A DNA stretch of 64,000 nt from an uncultured Methanosarcinaceae archaeon (GCA_963727895.1 CAVSHT010000008.1:64001-128000), one strand, 5' to 3'. Positions 20,961 to 29,857 are shown, counted from the stretch's first letter. Program-made: numbers and translations. Notes: generated from the letters alone by a model not told the origin.

Positions 20961-21680
20961 TATTGTTGTTTCCTCTTTTCCATATAACTTAGGCAACCAT
21001 TCAATTTGAAAGAAAAATTACCATATAAATATATGCTTTTTTACCAGTATTAGACATATTTTCATAACTGACTAAGGGGTGTAAAGATCCAGAAAAAAAG
21101 TATCCAGTTATTATATTTCCATTTTAATCATAAAATATCTCCCCACAGGGAAAGATCAATTTTATCAAAAAAGCCCTGTGAAGGGCTCCTTTTAAACTCC
21201 TTTTGAATCTGCAATAATCGCGGGTTTTTTAGTTTATAGTGAGTTCATGTCTATTTATCTGAAATTTTAAATTGCCACGTACCTATCTCAGAATTAGGGT
21301 TTTATAACAGGTAATACCCATTTTACCAAAATTGTGAAAATAGCTAATATAATAATAAGCCATATTACCCAACTGGGTAAGTTTTCGGGTGTTTCAACCA
21401 TAATAATAGATATTTCAGAATCATATAAAAAGACGTATAGATAGATTACTCCAACTTACCTTTTTCGAATCAATTTTAAGTTACCTGGAAAGGATATGAA
21501 AAAATTTTCATCTCTTATTAAGCGATCCATTTTCTGGCTATTTTCTTTAGTTTATAATTAACTTGAAAAATTTCCTTAAATCAGACAAATATCTAAAAAC
21601 ATATTTAGTGGAGATTCCAGCAGACAGCCAGCAGGAAAAATATCTAAAAACTGAATTCAATATCAATGGACTTGAATTCT

Positions 21681-21914
21681 TCACAAGTCCTTTTCTCCAA
21701 GCCACTCTTCTCTTGAAATACGAGATTGTTTAAGAATCCTTGTTAGAAGATCAATCCCAATTGCACCCTTATGTGGATTGGGAATCGTTAAAACAAGATC
21801 TCCTTTTCTCATAAAAGGATGCTTTCCGCCAGAATAAGATCCTTCAAATCCCAGTTCTTGCAATCTTTTAACAAAGGTTCGCCAATCGACAGGGACCAGC
21901 TTAGACAATTGCAA
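21681..21914 (-). CDS. hicA: HicA-family toxin (mRNA interferase)
   Basis: LGF...GGKH.FM......TIPNPH....I...LL..IL motif. Overlaps hicB. Confidence 0.85.
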   Translation of the reverse strand: MQLSKLVPVDWRTFVKRLQELGFEGSYSGGKHPFMRKGDLVLTIPNPHKGAIGIDLLTRILKQSRISREEWLGEKDL

Positions 21915-22152
21915 TATCTCCTGGTTCTTTGATTACATAGTCCCCGATCCGTGGCAGAGGTAGTCCATTTCTCAATCTGATAACGATCCATTCATCAATG
22001 ACTTCTTCCAAGTTTCTACGACATTCTTCAAGTGTCTTGCCTGTAGCCCATACACCCTCAAGTTCGGGAACTTCTCCATAATAAGGTTCTTCGTCATCGA
22101 TTATTTCGTATTTTGCTCTTTCAAGAGCCGCGTGGATATACTGGATGAGCAT
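21901..22152 (-). CDS. hicB: HicB-family antitoxin (short, no DNA-binding domain)
   Basis: YYGEVPELEGVWATGKTLEECRRNLEE...W...L...LP motif. Confidence 0.85.
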   Translation of the reverse strand: MLIQYIHAALERAKYEIIDDEEPYYGEVPELEGVWATGKTLEECRRNLEEVIDEWIVIRLRNGLPLPRIGDYVIKEPGDIAIV

Positions 22153-22434
22153 AATTACACCTTTCCGAACTGATATATTTAGTTTTATACTGTTTAAATC
22201 TTATATAGGTTATGCGAATCGGGTTAGATCTGTAAGAATTACAGTCTTTAATTTCTCTTTTCTTGACAATTGTATTCGGGGAAAATTTCAGCAGACCATC
22301 GGCTGGAGAAATATATTAAAACTGAACGTGAAGAAAAGCTCACTTAAAAGTATATTCATAATTTATGTGAATTTTAAAAAAATAGAAAAAAAATAAGATA
22401 AGTGTTGATGCAAACTTAATTGCAGAAATAACAC

Positions 22435-22623
22435 TTAGTATCTTCTGTTTTCTCTGGGCGTCCTGTGGTTAGGAAGACAATCCCTGCAATAAACTGGTCT
22501 TTCTGGGTCAGGTTTGAAAGGCACTTCTGTCTCAACATTGCAGTCTGAACAGGTTGCTTTGTGCATTTCTCTTGGAGCGCCGAAATTAGAATTTCCTCTG
22601 AAGTTACTGTCATTAAAAGCCAT
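22435..22623 (-). CDS. CxxC-x17-CxxC zinc-ribbon small protein, copy A
   Basis: CSDC...EVPFKPDPERPVYCRDC, SD AGGTGA, RG/N-rich N-terminus. Confidence 0.9.
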   Translation of the reverse strand: MAFNDSNFRGNSNFGAPREMHKATCSDCNVETEVPFKPDPERPVYCRDCLPNHRTPRENRRY

Positions 22624-22675
22624 TTTTGTTTCACCTTTGTTTTTAGTTTTTGTTTTAGTTTTTATTAATTGTTTT

Positions 22676-22760
22676 AAAATAAGATTGTATAGAACTCTTT
22701 GATTAAAAACAAAAGTTGGTTTTTAATAACAGATTATTATACATCTCTTTATTTGTCAAT
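22676..22760 (-). promoter_or_regulatory. Conserved structured 5' leader, copy 1
   Basis: Long stem with apical AUUAAAAAC-CAACUUUU-GUUUUUAAU. Starts ~20-25 nt downstream of a TTTATATA box. Confidence 0.65.
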
Positions 22761-23192
22761 ATATATATAGCACTTAAACTATATAAATCTATTTATAAAC
22801 ATAGAGCACAATTTCTCAAATGAGAACAATTTCCAGATATAGTTTGCAGAAGAAGCAACAACCTATTTTCTGAGAACTCCTGAAAACAGAATTTGGTTAA
22901 CAGTTTTCCACTTTTGAAACAATCCTATAACAGAAAAAAATCAGTTTGATCTAAAAAAGCTGCCCTGCAAAGTGTCTCTCTTAAATCTACTAAAATAGCG
23001 GGTTTTTCAATTTCACTTTGATTCTTAAAAAACGTTTTCGGAGAGATTTCAGCATGCCGCCGGCAGAAAAATATATTTTAACTGAATCAAACGTGACAAA
23101 GAGTCCAGTTACAAAAGATATTCCACATTTGGTTTATTTTAAAAAATGGAAATGAAAAAAGTGTTGATGTAAACTTAGTTAACAAATAATAT

Positions 23193-23390
23193 TTAGTATC
23201 TATCTTGTCTGGGTTTTCTGTGTTTAGGAAGACATTCTCTACAGTAAACCGGTCTTTCCGGGTCAGGTTCAAAAGGTACTTCGGTTTCAACACCACAATC
23301 AGAACATTTTGTCTTGTGCATTTCCCTGGGAGCTCCAAAGCCTCCACGGTTGCTGTCTCTTCCTCTGCTTCCTCTGTCATTAAAGGCCAT
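23193..23390 (-). CDS. CxxC-x17-CxxC zinc-ribbon small protein, copy B
   Basis: CSDC...VPFEPDPERPVYCREC, SD AGGTGA. Confidence 0.9.
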   Translation of the reverse strand: MAFNDRGSRGRDSNRGGFGAPREMHKTKCSDCGVETEVPFEPDPERPVYCRECLPKHRKPRQDRY

Positions 23391-23428
23391 TTGTTTTCAC
23401 CTTTGGTTTTAGTTGTTAGTTGTTGCTG

Positions 23429-23513
23429 AAAAATAAGATTGTATACGACTCTTTGGTTAAAAACAAAAATTGGTTTTTAACGACAGATTGTCATACATCT
23501 CTTTATTTTCAAT
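23429..23513 (-). promoter_or_regulatory. Conserved structured 5' leader, copy 2
   Basis: GUUAAAAAC-CAAUUUUU-GUUUUUAAC. G-C replaces the A-U pair of copy 1. Confidence 0.65.
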
Positions 23514-24009
23514 ATCTATACATTGCATTTAAAATATATAAGTATTCCTATAATTATAAAAATATTTTCATTTAAATGAAAGAAAAATTTGTGATCAGGG
23601 TTTCTGGAGTAGATAAAATGCCTAAAATTCCAATTCCGGCTGATTATCCGATAAAGCAAAATTGTTGACCCTGCAAAATGTTATCTTTTAAACCTGCAAA
23701 AATTACGGGTTTTTTAGCTCTCTTTTCTTAGCAAATGTATAAGGGAAGATTTCAGAAGACCCGCGGCAGGAAAATTATCTCTAAATAGAAGAGGAAGTAA
23801 TAAACGAAATTTCAGCGTCCTTCTTTAGCAATTATAGACATTAAGTGCAAAATATATAAACAACTCATTGTCTATAGAACTTCTCCATGTCAACGCAGAC
23901 GCGTTCCTGCAGAAAAGTGAAATATATATTTCAGGCATCTTTTTTAGACGCCTTTATTTCAGATACCTATATAAAGCATCTTTATTCTGATACTTTTAGA
24001 TCAATAAAA

Positions 24010-24363
24010 TCAATACGTAATGTAGCCTTTTCGCTCAAGCCATTCGACCTGGGGTCTTGTGTATTTCCAGGTTACTTCGGCTTTGGAGTCTTGGACTTCC
24101 CAGGGATTGGCTATGACAACATCGCCTTCGTGAATCCACATTCTCTTCTTTTTAGAGCCCGGTATCCTTCCCATGCGGACAATTCCATCCATACACTGAA
24201 GTGTTACCCTTTTCGAGCCGAGTAAACATGCAACTGTTGCCAGGACTTCATTTCTATCCTTGCGGGGGATTCGTACCCTGGATACTTCCTGGGTACTTCC
24301 TGAGTTTACCGGTTTTGATGATCCTAATCTTCTTTTTCTGATAGTGCTTCTATAATTAGCCAG
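24010..24363 (-). CDS. eif1a: Translation initiation factor aIF-1A, paralogue 1, probable CTG start (117 aa)
   Basis: RVRIP...EVLATV..LLGSKRV..QCMDG..RMGRIPG..KKRMWI.EGD.V...PWE.QD.KA...WKYTR.Q..WL..KGY. SD GAGG 7 nt upstream of CTG GCT AAT. Confidence 0.92.
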
Positions 24364-24587
24364 GTTAATTCCTCGTTGGTATACTTTGATTAATTTTTGT
24401 AAAAGTTTGCTGTTGGGCAATTTGTACAGGTTCTCATTCTCGATATCGTTTTGTTCTTATTTTTCCTTGCCGCATGAGGGTGGAATAAATAAAGAAACAA
24501 AGAGAATAAACCAAAAAACAAAAAGAAAAGATGAATCAGGAGTTAATGTAAAATAATTACAAAATTAACGCCTAATACAGATTATCT

Positions 24588-24770
24588 TTAGAACTTCCTG
24601 TGGTTAGGAAGACAATCTCTGCAGTATACTGGCCTGCCTTCTGTGGGTTTGAACGGTACTTCGGTCTCAACACCGCAGTCAGAACAGGTCACTTTTGTCA
24701 TTTCCCTTGGTCCGCTGTTACCGCGGAAACCTCCGGAATTTCCCCTGAAATTTCTGTCATTAAAAGCCAT
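24588..24770 (-). CDS. CxxC-x17-CxxC zinc-ribbon small protein, copy C
   Basis: CSDC...VPFKPTEGRPVYCRDC, SD GGAGGTGA. Confidence 0.9.
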   Translation of the reverse strand: MAFNDRNFRGNSGGFRGNSGPREMTKVTCSDCGVETEVPFKPTEGRPVYCRDCLPNHRKF

Positions 24771-24809
24771 TTTCGTTTCACCTCCGCTCTAGCGGATAGT
24801 CAATAGTTT

Positions 24810-24890
24810 AAAAACAAGATTGTATAGACCCCTTGATTAAAAACGAAAATTGGTTTTTAATAACAGATTATACGTCTCTTTATTTTCAAT
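24810..24890 (-). promoter_or_regulatory. Conserved structured 5' leader, copy 3
   Basis: Same stem-loop as copies 1 and 2, with a TATA box at ~24911-24919. Confidence 0.65.
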
Positions 24891-24936
24891 ACATACACTA
24901 TACATTCAAATTATATAAATGCATCTATACAATATA

Positions 24937-26760
24937 TAGTCACCACTTTAAATAATGCGACATTTTATGTTTAAATGTATGTTTCTCCCAAAATTCATTC
25001 ATTTCTTCCTTTAATGCTTCAATATTTTTAAATGATTTTATTGACGTTAAGTTTTCTCTTGTCACTTTCCAACAGTATTTTGTTGGGTTTCTATCTGGAG
25101 TAGCTGGAGGGAAAAATATTATTTTCAACCAATGCTTATTATTTTGATAAAATTCCTTTGCCTTTGCTGATCTATGCCATGTAGCTCTGTCCAGTAAAAG
25201 AAATATCCTTATCCCTATATCTCTTTGAAACTTGATTAATGATTTTAAGTAAGAGTCTGTATTCTGTGTAATTCCTAAATCATACCAATAAAACTCTCCA
25301 TTTTCAGTGTAGAATCCCCCAATATTGATTTTTGCTTTTGAACCACTTGTAAATTTAATAGGTTTTGAGCCCTTTATTGCCCAACATCTGGATCTATTTG
25401 AATCCACACAAAAATTACTGGAATTGGTAATTAAAAATAGATATATGTGCTTATAACATATATTTCTTCATGAACTGCCCAAAATGTAATAGTTCCAGTC
25501 ACAAAAAGAATGGTATAGTTGGTGGTCGTCAAAGGTACAAATGCCATGATTGTGGATATAACTATACAGTAGAGCTAAAATCAACTGCTTTTTCCACTTA
25601 TGTAAAAAAACAGGCTTTACAACTTTACCTTGAAGGATTGGGCTTTCGTTCAATAGGAAGAGTTTTAGGGGTGAGTCATGTTTCTGTCCAAAGATGGATC
25701 AAGAAATTTGGTCAGGAGTTAGAGGACCTAAAAAGTGAAAATGAAATATCTATTGTTGAAATGGATGAAATGCACACTTACATCGGTAACAAACAAAATA
25801 TTGCTGGATCTGGATTGCTGTTGATAGAGTTGAGAAAAAGTTCATCAGCTGCTCTTTTGGCAGCAGAGGAACGGAAACTGGAAAATTACTCTGGGAAAAA
25901 TTGAAGAAAAAAGAGATTGGAGAAGTGATGACAGATCACTGGAGAGCATATGCAGAGTTTCTTCCTGAAACGATTCATACTCAATCCAAAGCAGAAACGT
26001 ATACTGTTGAAGGATATAACAGCATATTGAGGCACTTTCTGGCAAGGTTGAGAAGAAAGACAAAGTGTTATACGAAGAGTCTTGAAATGCTAAAGTACTC
26101 GGTTATTCTATTGATGAAATACAGAAATAAAGAACTAGATATATTTAGATAACAATACCAAATTACTTTCATCAGGGGTAACGAATAAATGATTAGGGTT
26201 TAGTAATCTGTTTTTTGGACTTCTCTTATGAATTATTTTTTAAGCACCTCATTTCTTCTTTTAGATTGAGGTCGACATGTGATTTTTCTCAACCCTAAAT
26301 TTTTTAAAATTTGTCTCATTCTTGATTTGGAATAAGATACTCCAAATTTTTCCTTGACAAATTGAACTGCATCTTTTGTTTGCCAACCACGAGAATAAAC
26401 ATCATCTGTTGGTATAGGTTCTAAAAATGCCTCTCTTAACTCAGATAATTGTTCTGCAGTTAAAAAAGACTTGATTCCTCGACCAGGTTTACATTTAAGA
26501 CTAAACAAACCGTCGGTTTCAGCTCGTTTTATCCAGCGATGAACAGTTGAACGGTGAACTGAAAAATCGTCGGCAACTTTAGCGGGACTCAAACCATTTT
26601 TGATCAATAATAAGGCTTGAAGTTTAATCTACACGTTTTTGTTACAGGAATTTATGATAGCTGTAGAAATATCAGAAGTTGTAAACATTTCCAAACTCAT
26701 ATATAAAATTATATACTCATTTCAGGTATAATAATGTTGCAGTAAATACAGAGGTGACTA
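24937..26760 (-). mobile_element. IS630-family element (TA TSD), interrupted by IS1 copy 4; transposase is a pseudogene
   Basis: TIR TAGTCACC...GGTGACTA flanked by TA. HTH ORF plus DDE ORF (DES, LDRATWH, PD.NP). In-frame TAG near 26630. Confidence 0.88.
25420..26159 (+). mobile_element. IS1-family element copy 4 (740 bp), nested in IS630, 8-bp TSD AAATTACT
   Basis: TSD at 25412-25419 and 26160-26167. The uninterrupted IS630 sequence is present in the second copy near 39760. Confidence 0.93.
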
Positions 26761-27173
26761 TAGTACACAACTTCTCAAAAAAGAGAATTTATTTAAAAAT
26801 AATTTATGGAGAAGATAACAGCTTATTTCCTGATAGCTCCTGAAAACAGAATTCAGTTAACAGGTTTACTGGAAAGCAGCTCTACAAAGGAAAAGATCAC
26901 TGCTATCAAAAAAGGCCCTTCAAAATGCTTCTTATAAACCTGCAAAAATCACGGGTTTTCAAGATTTCTTTTATTAACAACCATACTCGGGGAATATTCC
27001 GGCAAGTTGCCGGCAGAAAAATATATTAACTGAATTAAACGTGAAAAAGAGGTTATTTAAATAGTATTTCTGGATTAATGTAACCTTCAAAATAGTATTT
27101 CTAGGTTAATGTGATTTTTAAAAAAGTGAAAAAGAAATAAGTGTTGATGCAAACTTAATTGCAGAAATAACAC

Positions 27174-27362
27174 TTAGTATCTTCTGTTTTCTCTGGGAGT
27201 CCTGTGGTTAGGAAGACATTCTCTGCAGTAAACCGGTCTTTCTGGGTCAGGTTTAAAAGGCACTTCGGTTTCAACACCACAATCAGAACAGGTTGTCTTA
27301 TGCATTTCTCTTGGAGCACCGAAATTAGAATTTCCTCTGAAGTTTCTGTCATTAAAAGCCAT
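27174..27362 (-). CDS. CxxC-x17-CxxC zinc-ribbon small protein, copy A'
   Basis: Near-identical to copy A. Confidence 0.9.
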   Translation of the reverse strand: MAFNDRNFRGNSNFGAPREMHKTTCSDCGVETEVPFKPDPERPVYCRECLPNHRTPRENRRY

Positions 27363-27413
27363 TTTTGTTTCACCTTTGTTTTATTTTTTGTTTTAGTTTT
27401 TATTAATTGTTTT

Positions 27414-27498
27414 AAAATAAGATTGTATAGAACTTTCTGTTTAAAATCAAAAATTGGTTTTTAACAACAGATGATTATACGGATCTTTATTTATCAAC
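27414..27498 (-). promoter_or_regulatory. Conserved structured 5' leader, copy 4
   Basis: Same fold, with UCUGUU/AACAGA pairing in the middle stem. Confidence 0.6.
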
Positions 27499-27811
27499 AC
27501 ACGTACATGAATCTTAATATATATAAATTTTTCTATAAGGGGAGAACCTTCCTCAAATGAGAACCTATCTTAGATACAGAGCTTATAGAACAAATAAAAA
27601 TGCCCCTTATATTCTGATTCCAGATGATCATTGATAAAGCAAATCTGAAGGTACTGCAAACACTCTCCCAAAATTGTATATAGAACCTTGCTCACATCAA
27701 CATTAGATATATTCCTGCAGAAAAGTAAAATGATGGGTTTCAGGCATCTTTTTCAGACACCTCTATTTCAATTATTTATTATTATATTCGGCATTTTTAT
27801 AATTTAAAAAC

Positions 27812-28162
27812 TTATTTAATATAGCCTTTCCGTTCGAGCCATTCTATCTGGGGCCTTGTGTATTTCCAGGTTATTTCGGCTTTGGAGTCCTGAATTTCCC
27901 ACGGGTTAGCAATAACAATATCGCCTTCACGAATCCACATTTTTTTATGTTTAGAGCCTGGGATTCTACCCATTCGTACAACTCCGTCCATACACTGAAG
28001 TGTTACTCTTTTCGAACCGAGTAAACACGCAACCGTTGCCAGGACTTCATTTCTGTCCTTGCGAGGGATTCTTACTCTGGATACTTCAGGGGCATCTCCT
28101 GATCTTACGGGATTTGTCGACCCTAATCTTTTTTTTCGAATAGTGCTTCTGTAATTCGCCAG
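27812..28162 (-). CDS. eif1a: Translation initiation factor aIF-1A, paralogue 2, probable CTG start (116 aa). Absent from the ORF track.
   Basis: Hand translation: (M)[123 protein letters not shown] upstream of CTG. Confidence 0.9.
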
Positions 28163-28406
28163 GTTAATTTCTCCTTGAGGATCTTGATTTAATTTGGATC
28201 TTGATTTAATTTATATCTAACTTGAAAATTGAATAGTTCGCATCGATTATTGTTCTCTATATTGTTTTGTTCTTACTTTTTCTGCTTCGATAGTGAAAAT
28301 AAGTAGAGAAACAAAGAGAACAAACCAAAAAAAACAAAAAGAAAAGATGAATCAGGGATTAATGTAAAACTTAATTACAAATTAATAGCACCTGATGCAG
28401 ATTATC

Positions 28407-28589
28407 TTAGAATTTCCTGTGGTTAGGAAGACAGTCTCTGCAGTATACTGGCCTACCTTCGGTGGGTTTGAATGGTACTTCTGTCTCAACACCGCAGTCG
28501 GAACAGGTCACTTTTGTCATTTCCCTTGGTCCGCTGTTACCGCGGAAACCTCCGGAATTTCCCCTGAAATTTCTGTCATTAAAAGCCAT
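28407..28589 (-). CDS. CxxC-x17-CxxC zinc-ribbon small protein, copy C'
   Basis: Protein identical to copy C, with synonymous differences only. Confidence 0.9.
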   Translation of the reverse strand: MAFNDRNFRGNSGGFRGNSGPREMTKVTCSDCGVETEVPFKPTEGRPVYCRDCLPNHRKF

Positions 28590-28628
28590 TTTCGTTTCAC
28601 CTCCGCTCTAGCGGATAGTCAATAGTTT

Positions 28629-28710
28629 AAAAACAAGATTGTATATACCTTTAAATTAAAAAACAAAAATTGGTTTTTAATAACAGATTATACGTCTCTT
28701 TATTTTCAAT
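28629..28710 (-). promoter_or_regulatory. Conserved structured 5' leader, copy 5
   Basis: Same motif, with a TATA box at ~28731-28739. Confidence 0.6.
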
Positions 28711-29650: not shown

Positions 29651-29857
29651 AAAATTCGATTTTTTAATCATCCAGGTGTGTTTGGGAGAGATTTCAGCAA
29701 GCTGCTGGCAATGAAATATTTTTTAACTGTGTTGAATTGAAAATAAAATTCAAATTTCCATCCTTAGTAATTATAAATACCACTATAGCAGACTAATATG
29801 CGGGTTACTATAAAAAGCATTGAAAAATAATTATTTTGAATAGGTTGGTGTAATACT

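Follow-up and report, generated by a model that had tools for sequence, protein, structure and literature searches.

To our knowledge, very few cis-regulatory RNAs have been described in archaea. In the translational riboswitch platforms and in the ROSE and fourU thermometers, access to the initiation region depends on which of the mutually exclusive helices forms. In the hok mRNA, with its metastable hairpins, and in the leader of the MS2 maturation gene, a transient 5' hairpin delays the long-range pairing that closes the start, which leaves a time window for translation. Ribosomal proteins and L7Ae have autoregulatory leaders that are bound by their own product. The E. coli cspA mRNA is described in PMC6386945 as a cold thermosensor. 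Here we describe a 5' leader of about 85 nucleotides (nt) from an uncultured Methanosarcinaceae archaeon (genome of 3.67 Mb, about 36% G+C), found in a 64,000-nt stretch of its DNA, GCA_963727895.1 CAVSHT010000008.1:64001-128000, which we call the window. The 5' arm and loop of the hairpin in this leader are an antisense copy of the start of the gene that follows, a feature missed by the earlier note that drew attention to the leader from the sequence.

On the minus strand of the window, between 22.4 and 28.8 kb, lie five genes encoding 60-65 amino acids (aa). The products of genes 1-4 belong to TIGR04272, the 'CxxC-x17-CxxC domain' family (68.3-73.5 bits against a cut-off of 36), and score 63.4-69.4 bits against PF23477 (cut-off 27); the product of gene 5 is identical to that of gene 3. 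According to passages of PMC12704099, M. mazei has eight such CxxC proteins, two of which bind zinc as shown with ICP-MS (inductively coupled plasma mass spectrometry), and the proteins are detected with the highest confidence and have no assigned function; the words 'UTR' (untranslated region), 'leader' and 'cold' are absent from the main text of that paper. A highly translated four-cysteine small open reading frame (ORF), sORF_06, a possible member of this family, appears in passages of PMC11456600.

The five leader copies that the earlier note had placed ahead of these zinc-finger genes are all there on the minus strand, with copies 1 and 4 running from 22675 and 27413, and the same leader stands ahead of every CxxC gene that we examined elsewhere. 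The TATA-type box reported upstream of each copy is also present, as an 8-mer whose end is 21 nt away in copies 2-5 and 19 nt away in copy 1. When aligned, the five leaders have a mean column identity of 79%, and nhmmer detects the five copies with E values of 1e-16 to 1e-21, beyond chance. Each is followed by a Shine-Dalgarno (SD) sequence, either GGAGGUGA or AAGGUGA.

Three segments of these transcripts carry the argument. Segment X, UCUGUUAUUAAAAACCAAUUUU(C/U)GUUUU, takes in the loop of the hairpin, the 5' arm of its two upper stems and the opening bases of the 3' arm. Segment Z, GAAACGAAAAUGGCUUUUAAUGACAGA, extends from -9 to +17 over the 3' edge of the SD, the AUG and codons 2-6, and is complementary to X. 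Segment Y, GUUUUUAAUCAAAGAG, is the 3' arm of the hairpin and resembles the start of the coding sequence (CDS; GCUUUUAAUGACAGA). By window coordinates, the features are as follows.

22780-22787, minus strand: TATA box of copy 1, TTTATATA, ending 19 nt before the leader
22675-22760, minus strand: leader hairpin, copy 1
22705-22733, minus strand: segment X, copy 1 (5' arm and loop, antisense to the start region)
22606-22632, minus strand: segment Z, copy 1 (-9 to +18: SD 3' edge, AUG at 22621-22623, codons 2-6)
22435-22623, minus strand: CxxC-x17-CxxC gene 1, 62 aa
23535-23542, minus strand: TATA box of copy 2, 21 nt before the leader
23429-23513, minus strand: leader hairpin, copy 2; one RNA contig stops exactly at 23513
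23459-23487, minus strand: segment X, copy 2
23373-23399, minus strand: segment Z, copy 2 (AUG at 23388-23390)
23193-23390, minus strand: CxxC-x17-CxxC gene 2, 65 aa
24912-24919, minus strand: TATA box of copy 3, 21 nt before the leader
24810-24890, minus strand: leader hairpin, copy 3
24839-24867, minus strand: segment X, copy 3
24829-24844, minus strand: segment Y, copy 3 (3' arm, mimicking the CDS start)
24753-24779, minus strand: segment Z, copy 3 (AUG at 24768-24770; SD GGAGGTGA at 24778-24785)
24588-24770, minus strand: CxxC-x17-CxxC gene 3, 60 aa
27520-27527, minus strand: TATA box of copy 4, 21 nt before the leader
27413-27498, minus strand: leader hairpin, copy 4
27443-27471, minus strand: segment X, copy 4
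27345-27371, minus strand: segment Z, copy 4 (AUG at 27360-27362)
27174-27362, minus strand: CxxC-x17-CxxC gene 4, 62 aa
28732-28739, minus strand: TATA box of copy 5, 21 nt before the leader
28629-28710, minus strand: leader hairpin, copy 5
28659-28687, minus strand: segment X, copy 5
28572-28598, minus strand: segment Z, copy 5 (AUG at 28587-28589)
28407-28589, minus strand: CxxC-x17-CxxC gene 5, 60 aa, the same protein as gene 3

The complementarity of X and Z was measured across the family. In 55 distinct sequences the 26 X:Z pairs are intact in 96.1% of 1414 alignment cells, against 46-57% when the partners are slid, and in window copy 3 the duplex has 26 pairs with one A-C mismatch and one bulged A. 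The duplexes have a mean energy of -22.3 kcal/mol (-17.9 to -26.8 over 40 distinct combinations), against -7.3 +/- 2.4 with shuffled X, and cognate X:Z combinations beat permuted pairings (-21.2 +/- 0.26), with none of 5000 permutations as good. Compared with its fit to Y, X pairs far more strongly with Z (means of -8.0 and -22.1 kcal/mol as duplexes, respectively). After folding the whole UTR together with the first 11 codons at 37 °C, the minimum free energy (MFE) structure paired the 5' arm with the start region in four of the five window copies, and the consensus structure that RNAalifold drew from a 62-sequence alignment was the X:Z helix rather than the hairpin.

Pairing with Z also accounts for bases that are unpaired in the hairpin and yet conserved: the GUU of the internal loop pairs with GAC, and the CC of the loop with the GG of AUGG. 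Position 30 of X (A/G) follows the synonymous U/C third base of an Asn codon (AU 34, GU 15, GC 5, unpaired 1), and the loop tends to follow codon 2, being ACCAA with GCU in 33 copies and ACUCG with GGU (Gly) in 4. The two copies with AGU (Ser) have the loop ACU(U)CA, including a perfect 12-bp AAAACUCAUUUU/AAAAUGAGUUUU match, and in the copy with GUU (Val) the A-C mismatch of X:Z becomes an A-U pair. The X:Z covariation score is 0.079 against 0.072 for shuffled alignments, of which 4 in 500 reach it. In X:Z there are 173 G-U cells and 22 A-C cells, an excess that suggests pairing in the sense RNA. A genome-wide search with the 18-mer that begins at the AUG, allowing up to 3 mismatches, returned 7 CxxC starts, 4 antisense-of-X sites and 8 scattered places.

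Taken by itself, the leader folds into the long, bulged, AU-rich hairpin that the earlier note had described, with MFE values of -12.3 to -24.2 kcal/mol and z scores of -1.85 to -6.13 in the eight copies folded; the UCUGUU/AACAGA pairing ascribed to copy 4 forms as well. The structure is one unbranched stem, and R1, a covariance model made from the eight leader copies of this genome, has 0 branch points. The 29 pairs are formed in 97.2% of 1906 cells in 66 distinct copies, compared with 39-55% for slid partners. The lower stem has one variable position, A, C or U, which is the predicted bulge, and a U run terminates the hairpin in nearly all copies. The excess of G-U over A-C cells (79 against 20) is a weak hint that the sense RNA matters. 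It is conserved complementarity that supports the hairpin, without significant covariation: both sides change in 2 of the 29 pairs and in 4 cells, values reached by 181 and 33 of 500 shuffles, respectively, and the covariation that had been claimed is not upheld. The double change from A-U to G-C at the base of the apical stem does occur within the window, but among the 66 distinct copies this pair is AU in 42, GU in 10, GC in 3 and unpaired in 11. Likewise, the conserved CCAAUUUU loop proved to be a property of this genome only, the loops across the genus being ACCAA, ACUAA, ACUCG, ACUCA, ACUAG and others. A short upstream ORF in the leader was considered as a further candidate and rejected: a 5' UUG opens a 10-codon frame, but this codon is UUA in 22 of the 66 distinct copies, and 1-nt insertions shift the frame elsewhere.

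By prediction, X:Y and X:Z are both possible and both conserved in all copies. Because X lies within the basal stems and Z outside them, and a 26-bp helix could not be threaded through a linker of 0-3 nt, the two folds should exclude each other. We therefore propose, with moderate confidence, that the element may be a two-state (bistable) translational switch of CxxC-x17-CxxC mRNAs, and one that probably acts on mRNA stability as well. X and Y are transcribed before Z, so that the X:Y hairpin would form first (state 1, ON), with the basal stems closed and only about 2 nt ahead of the hairpin; the ribosome would then find the start region free, and the 5' end would be buried. In the OFF state X would pair with Z over about 26 bp, masking the AUG and releasing Y, and the first 25 or so A-rich bases would be single-stranded and open to 5'-end-dependent decay. 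The balance could be set by temperature, by way of a cspA-like ON form trapped in the cold, by a factor such as the encoded RG-rich zinc protein that would bind the invariant hairpin or speed refolding, or by both. The protein-driven route would provide feedback across the family. The near-invariance of the basal stems and of all paralogues suggests a shared trans-factor; the CxxC protein, whose sequence has an RG-rich N-terminus beside a zinc ribbon, suggests itself as the obvious candidate for binding the leader.

Predicted folding depends on temperature. At least 15 X:Z pairs are present in the MFE structures of 34, 37, 46 and 51 of 59 copies at 15, 25, 37 and 45 °C, respectively. The cost of opening the region from -12 to +12 is 7.5 kcal/mol with X and 5.0 kcal/mol without X at 37 °C, and 12.1 and 9.8 kcal/mol at 10 °C.

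The likeness to cspA lies in the long 5' leader, in a gene for a small, abundant and, here, putatively nucleic-acid-binding protein, and in alternative folds that expose or hide the start. In both cases the coding start joins the pairing, and a kinetically favoured fold could persist in the cold; the leader and coding start here are predicted to take two folds, one of which hides the start, as in cspA. The differences are the archaeal host, the much shorter leader (UTR of about 120 nt) and the simple three-segment design of antisense, mimic and target; the two leaders are not related in sequence or through Rfam, and equilibrium folding here does not open the start in the cold. Mutually exclusive helices would gate the start region as they do in riboswitch platforms and in ROSE and fourU thermometers. 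Unlike fourU and ROSE, however, the leader hairpin stops about 20 nt short of the SD, which it leaves unpaired, and X:Z (-9 to +17) touches only the last SD base, through a U:G pair at -9; unlike a riboswitch, the leader has no aptamer-like domain, multi-helix junction or pseudoknot. As in hok and MS2, a local 5' hairpin is predicted to compete with long-range pairing that is more stable and shuts the start, but those systems belong to a bacterial plasmid and a phage, whereas this one serves a chromosomal multigene family of 2-14 copies per genome. A hairpin that begins a few bases from the 5' end, if the transcription start is placed by TATA spacing, also recalls the ompA hp1 stabiliser; in contrast to hp1, the hairpin here keeps a fixed sequence, of which half is antisense to the start region.

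Selection on the leader was assessed from 62 copies, or 1891 pairs. Mean pairwise identity is 84% for the leader and 84% for the protein core, against 74% for the spacer to the ATG, which agrees with the claim that the leader is better conserved than the adjacent spacer. The 60 nt upstream of the leader are 56% identical, and the four-fold degenerate sites of the CDS core 54%. In the 1207 pairs whose four-fold identity is below 60% (mean 44%), the leader is still 83% identical and the upstream 60 nt 54%. The leader is under strong purifying selection. That it is kept as strictly as the protein points to tight control of the dosage of these proteins.

RNA evidence comes from metatranscriptome contigs from four runs, which are 95-100% like the window and derive from related strains. 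At copy 2, three contigs bridge the CDS and the leader (23241-23513, 23213-23499 and 23213-23485), and position 23513 is base 1 of the leader; at copy 3 the contigs cover 24682-24870, 24682-24873 and 24797-24874. None of the contigs reaches a TATA box. Because they span leader and CDS and stop short of the TATA box, the two are on one RNA, whose 5' end lies at or just inside the start of the leader. The gap between TATA box and leader is 21 nt in 42 of the 49 copies scored across genomes, 13 further copies having fallen outside the search pattern for the box; given the usual archaeal spacing from TATA box to transcription start, transcription would with this gap begin at the A or G of AUUGA, and the first pair would follow 1-3 nt later. 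Contigs pass through the U run into the CDS at copy 3 in three of the four runs and at copy 2 in three runs. Another contig, 24236-24711, spans CxxC gene 3 and the downstream aIF-1A gene. There is no contig coverage at copy 1 or at most intergenic parts, and depth cannot rank the leader against the CDS.

Another contig of the genome carries three further leaders, ahead of two additional CxxC genes and of one decayed copy, so that genome-wide the leader precedes 7 of 7 CxxC genes and the decayed copy (8 of 8). When R1 was searched in 151 sampled Methanosarcinaceae genomes, matches were found in 42 genomes and 3 of 16 genera, with 1-13 matches per genome: in 33 of 34, 2 of 2 and 6 of 6 genomes of three genera (Methanosarcina and two sisters) and in none of the other 13. 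This search used stricter filters, and weak matches may be lost for that reason; with the filters off, R1 matched among 30 loci from other genera only a locus that itself belongs to Methanosarcina (L077), the best other E value being 0.38. The CxxC protein family is broader than the leader, occurring in 115 of the 151 genomes and 11 of the 16 genera, with 2-14 paralogues per genome. In the loci examined, nhmmer detected 72 leaders: an intact CxxC ORF follows 63 of them, the end of the locus or a run of N truncates 4, and the other 5 stand before deletion remnants or decayed genes. In the other direction, every one of the 63 CxxC ORFs with sufficient upstream sequence carries the leader. From the end of the R1 model to the ATG the distance is 29-38 nt in 54 copies, except for window copies 1 and 4 (44-45 nt).

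In three genomes we observed leaders whose gene has been deleted down to its last codons (..CRECFPKHR*), at L009 891-996, L010 2170-2275 and L016 2053-2158. In these remnant leaders X has one change, UCUGCU.

Several observations weigh against the switch. Some loop variants do not track codon 2 (ACUAA with GCU in 8 copies, ACUCA with GCU in 2), and four MFND copies, in which the Ala codon is absent, retain CCA although its UGG partner is gone. At 37 °C, 13 of 59 copies, window copy 2 among them, have an MFE structure that lacks X:Z. Covariation is thin, with changes on both sides in 1 of 26 X:Z pairs and 2 of 29 hairpin pairs, and since the copies are related paralogues the permutation test overstates their independence. 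Near-invariance of the basal stem is not explained by X:Z. At equilibrium the start costs more to open in the cold, so that a cold-ON response could only be kinetic, and every structure considered is a prediction. On the RNA side, the contigs come from related strains (95-99% alike), and strand, exact ends and levels are beyond what they show. Contig ends at copy 3, marked by Illumina adapter joined at 24870, 24873 and 24878, lie 12-20 nt inside the leader; these ends, found in three runs, are 3-11 nt before X and could reflect the usual loss of terminal bases or trimming by a 5' exonuclease up to the X:Z helix. Finally, 72 of about 270 R1 matches were examined, and because most loci were retrieved through the leader itself, the unbiased evidence for linkage consists of this genome's 8 of 8, together with the numbers of R1 matches and of proteins per genome, which are similar.

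Other explanations were weighed against the same evidence. The hairpin might be a plain 5'-terminal stabiliser that only buries the 5' end against decay, the match of X to the start being a functionless relic of the leader's origin. The position of the hairpin, about 2 nt from the predicted 5' end (21-nt TATA gap in 42 of 49 copies; one contig ending at leader base 1), the great abundance of the proteins reported in passages of PMC12704099, and the hairpin-type MFE of 13 of 59 copies at 37 °C are all consistent with this. A stem alone would suffice for such a role, however, yet unpaired loop bases are conserved or track the start region, X fits Z better than Y (-22.1 against -8.0 kcal/mol), and the cognate X:Z wins over all 5000 permutations, so that we consider this explanation unlikely. 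If instead the CxxC protein or another factor bound the invariant hairpin as an RNA operator, to repress or activate, X:Z would be irrelevant. Across 66 distinct copies of three genera the stems, bulges and internal loops hardly vary, as a single trans-factor would need, and the protein carries an RG-rich N-terminus next to its zinc ribbon. The co-variation of the loop with codon 2 and of X with the Asn codon would be left unexplained, and the protein searches gave this reading nothing: 94 longer relatives (106-205 aa) contain PF23477 only, with or without PF13451 and PF24445, and include no fused RNA-binding or helicase forms; a PDB sequence search found no significant relative (best E 0.067); and a Protein Atlas search returned the protein's own family only. 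We regard such an operator as quite unlikely.

It is very unlikely, in our view, that the leader is a transcription attenuator or a small RNA (sRNA) gene, in which the hairpin and its U4-U6 run stop the polymerase to leave an RNA of about 90 nt, with regulated read-through or action in trans on the starts of paralogues. The U run stands at the end of the hairpin in nearly all copies, leader-only remnants persist in three genomes (L009, L010 and L016), X matches the starts of all 7 paralogues, and short RNAs would be lost from these metatranscriptome libraries. But contigs, blind though they are to partial termination, continue past the U run into the coding sequence; this run itself forms the paired 3' arm of the basal stem and leaves no free tail; and the UCUGCU change of the remnant leaders weakens X:Z. 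A DNA operator, with X, Y and Z as half-sites of a regulator that blocks transcription just past its start, is highly improbable. X, Y and Z are indeed three near-copies of one word of 13-15 bp, and passages of PMC12704099 speculate on a role of the proteins in transcription. Against this, the preference for G-U over A-C (173:22 in X:Z, 79:20 in the hairpin) is strand-specific and would be meaningless in duplex DNA, the complementarity runs over 26-28 contiguous bases and includes co-varying variable positions, and the site, at +25 to +140, is off the TATA box and the start. That the leader has no function and was simply carried along by recent duplication or gene conversion is scarcely credible: the paralogues are in tandem, and copies 3 and 5 are nearly identical, flanks included, but in 1207 pairs the four-fold sites are 44% identical and the upstream 60 nt 54% while the leader is 83% identical, and it has been retained across three genera.

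The two-state switch can be taken further, to a version that is tentative and that we find doubtful. It would be the first archaeal protein-coding mRNA with antisense and decoy copies of its own start, acting as a bistable timer or thermosensor. The co-transcriptional hairpin would keep translation ON and the 5' end protected, and refolding, faster in the warm or through annealing by the zinc protein, would shut off translation and expose the 5' end; since X and Z are shared by all 2-14 paralogues of a genome, all of this would be family-wide. Leader-only or prematurely ended RNAs could serve as antisense sRNAs in trans, and the aIF-1A neighbours would tie the system to control of initiation under stress. 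In practical terms, the leader gives an experimental handle on the timing of zinc-protein production, and the three-segment design makes sharp predictions that reporter mutants can address cheaply; it may also offer a compact regulatory part for Methanosarcina genetics.

Rfam 15 gave no match at the gathering score in the 64-kb window, and a search of 39,687 bases in 13 loci, among them leaders of the Methanosarcina type and the long leaders described below, gave none at E <= 0.1. Together with co-transcription with the CDS, selection and linkage to the gene, this bears out the suggestion of a cis-acting RNA outside Rfam, for which the earlier note had named a thermosensor, a stability element and an autoregulatory site as alternatives. 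Long 5' UTRs are common in Methanolobus and M. mazei according to passages of PMC5378194. The full-text literature searched, which lacks most subscription journals including the original M. mazei differential RNA-seq (dRNA-seq) paper, contains no description of this leader, nor did we find in the literature searched a natural switch in methanogens that masks a start codon by an internal antisense segment. The leader is a real, strongly selected family of 5' leaders of archaeal mRNAs and is new to the literature searched.

In other Methanosarcinaceae genera (loci L048-L076), each TIGR04272 gene is preceded, about 340 nt upstream, by a different conserved leader, which measures about 330 nt and comes after a TATA box; the CxxC proteins of these genera have a longer RG-rich N-terminus. 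The 5' domain of this leader is near-invariant in all three groups (ACAGUUAACUUACUUG ... CUUCUUUUAGGUUAAUUG), and its long-range helices show some compensatory changes, for example UA 9/CG 17 and GC 11/AU 12 at two pairs. The 5' strand of a long-range helix (AAGAG..CGUAUAGAUU) resembles the 5' basal strand of the Methanosarcina leader, but the long leader is four times longer and is not matched by R1. An nhmmer search with it found no match in the window genome, and antisense matches to its own start were not above shuffles in 27 loci (z -1.0 to +2.0). It may be a large structured RNA in its own right, one that has no Rfam match. An unrelated, longer leader in sister genera suggests that heavy 5'-UTR control is typical of the whole gene family.

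Genes for aIF-1A adjoin the CxxC genes in three of the four aIF-1A copies of this genome, and the same neighbourhood was seen in 22 other examined loci. Those located beside CxxC genes include the following.

24010-24420 of the window, minus strand: aIF-1A gene
27812-28170 of the window, minus strand: aIF-1A gene
1715-2005 of locus L001, minus strand: aIF-1A gene

Neither window copy has an ATG before the conserved in-frame stretch (ending in R/K) that follows GAGG; a non-canonical start or an N-terminal extension is possible.

A repeat of about 105 nt, TTCGGGGAA.ATTTCAGC..palindrome..GGCAGAAAAATATATT.AACTG, lies on the plus strand, opposite to the adjacent genes.

21597-21663, plus strand: repeat
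22244-22347, plus strand: repeat
23005-23113, plus strand: repeat
23709-23810, plus strand: repeat
26955-27059, plus strand: repeat
29655-29759, plus strand: repeat

All six copies in the genome are in this cluster, and similar copies occur in the CxxC clusters of other genomes. The repeat lies 80-200 nt downstream of CxxC genes 1, 2 and 4 and of one aIF-1A gene. Its central palindrome shows compensating changes between copies and is followed by a TATA-like box; the repeat could be a 3' element or an antisense promoter.

Between leader copies 3 and 4 (24940-26700) there is what appears to be an IS630-type-like transposase gene on the minus strand, split into 24940-25407 and 26233-26607. The insert that splits it resembles an IS1-like element, with a putative zinc-finger InsA-like ORF at 25470-25904 and a second frame at 25901-26152, as judged from the translations. 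At 21681-22152, on the minus strand, two small overlapping ORFs (77 and 83 aa) resemble what we take to be a HicA/HicB-type toxin-antitoxin pair.

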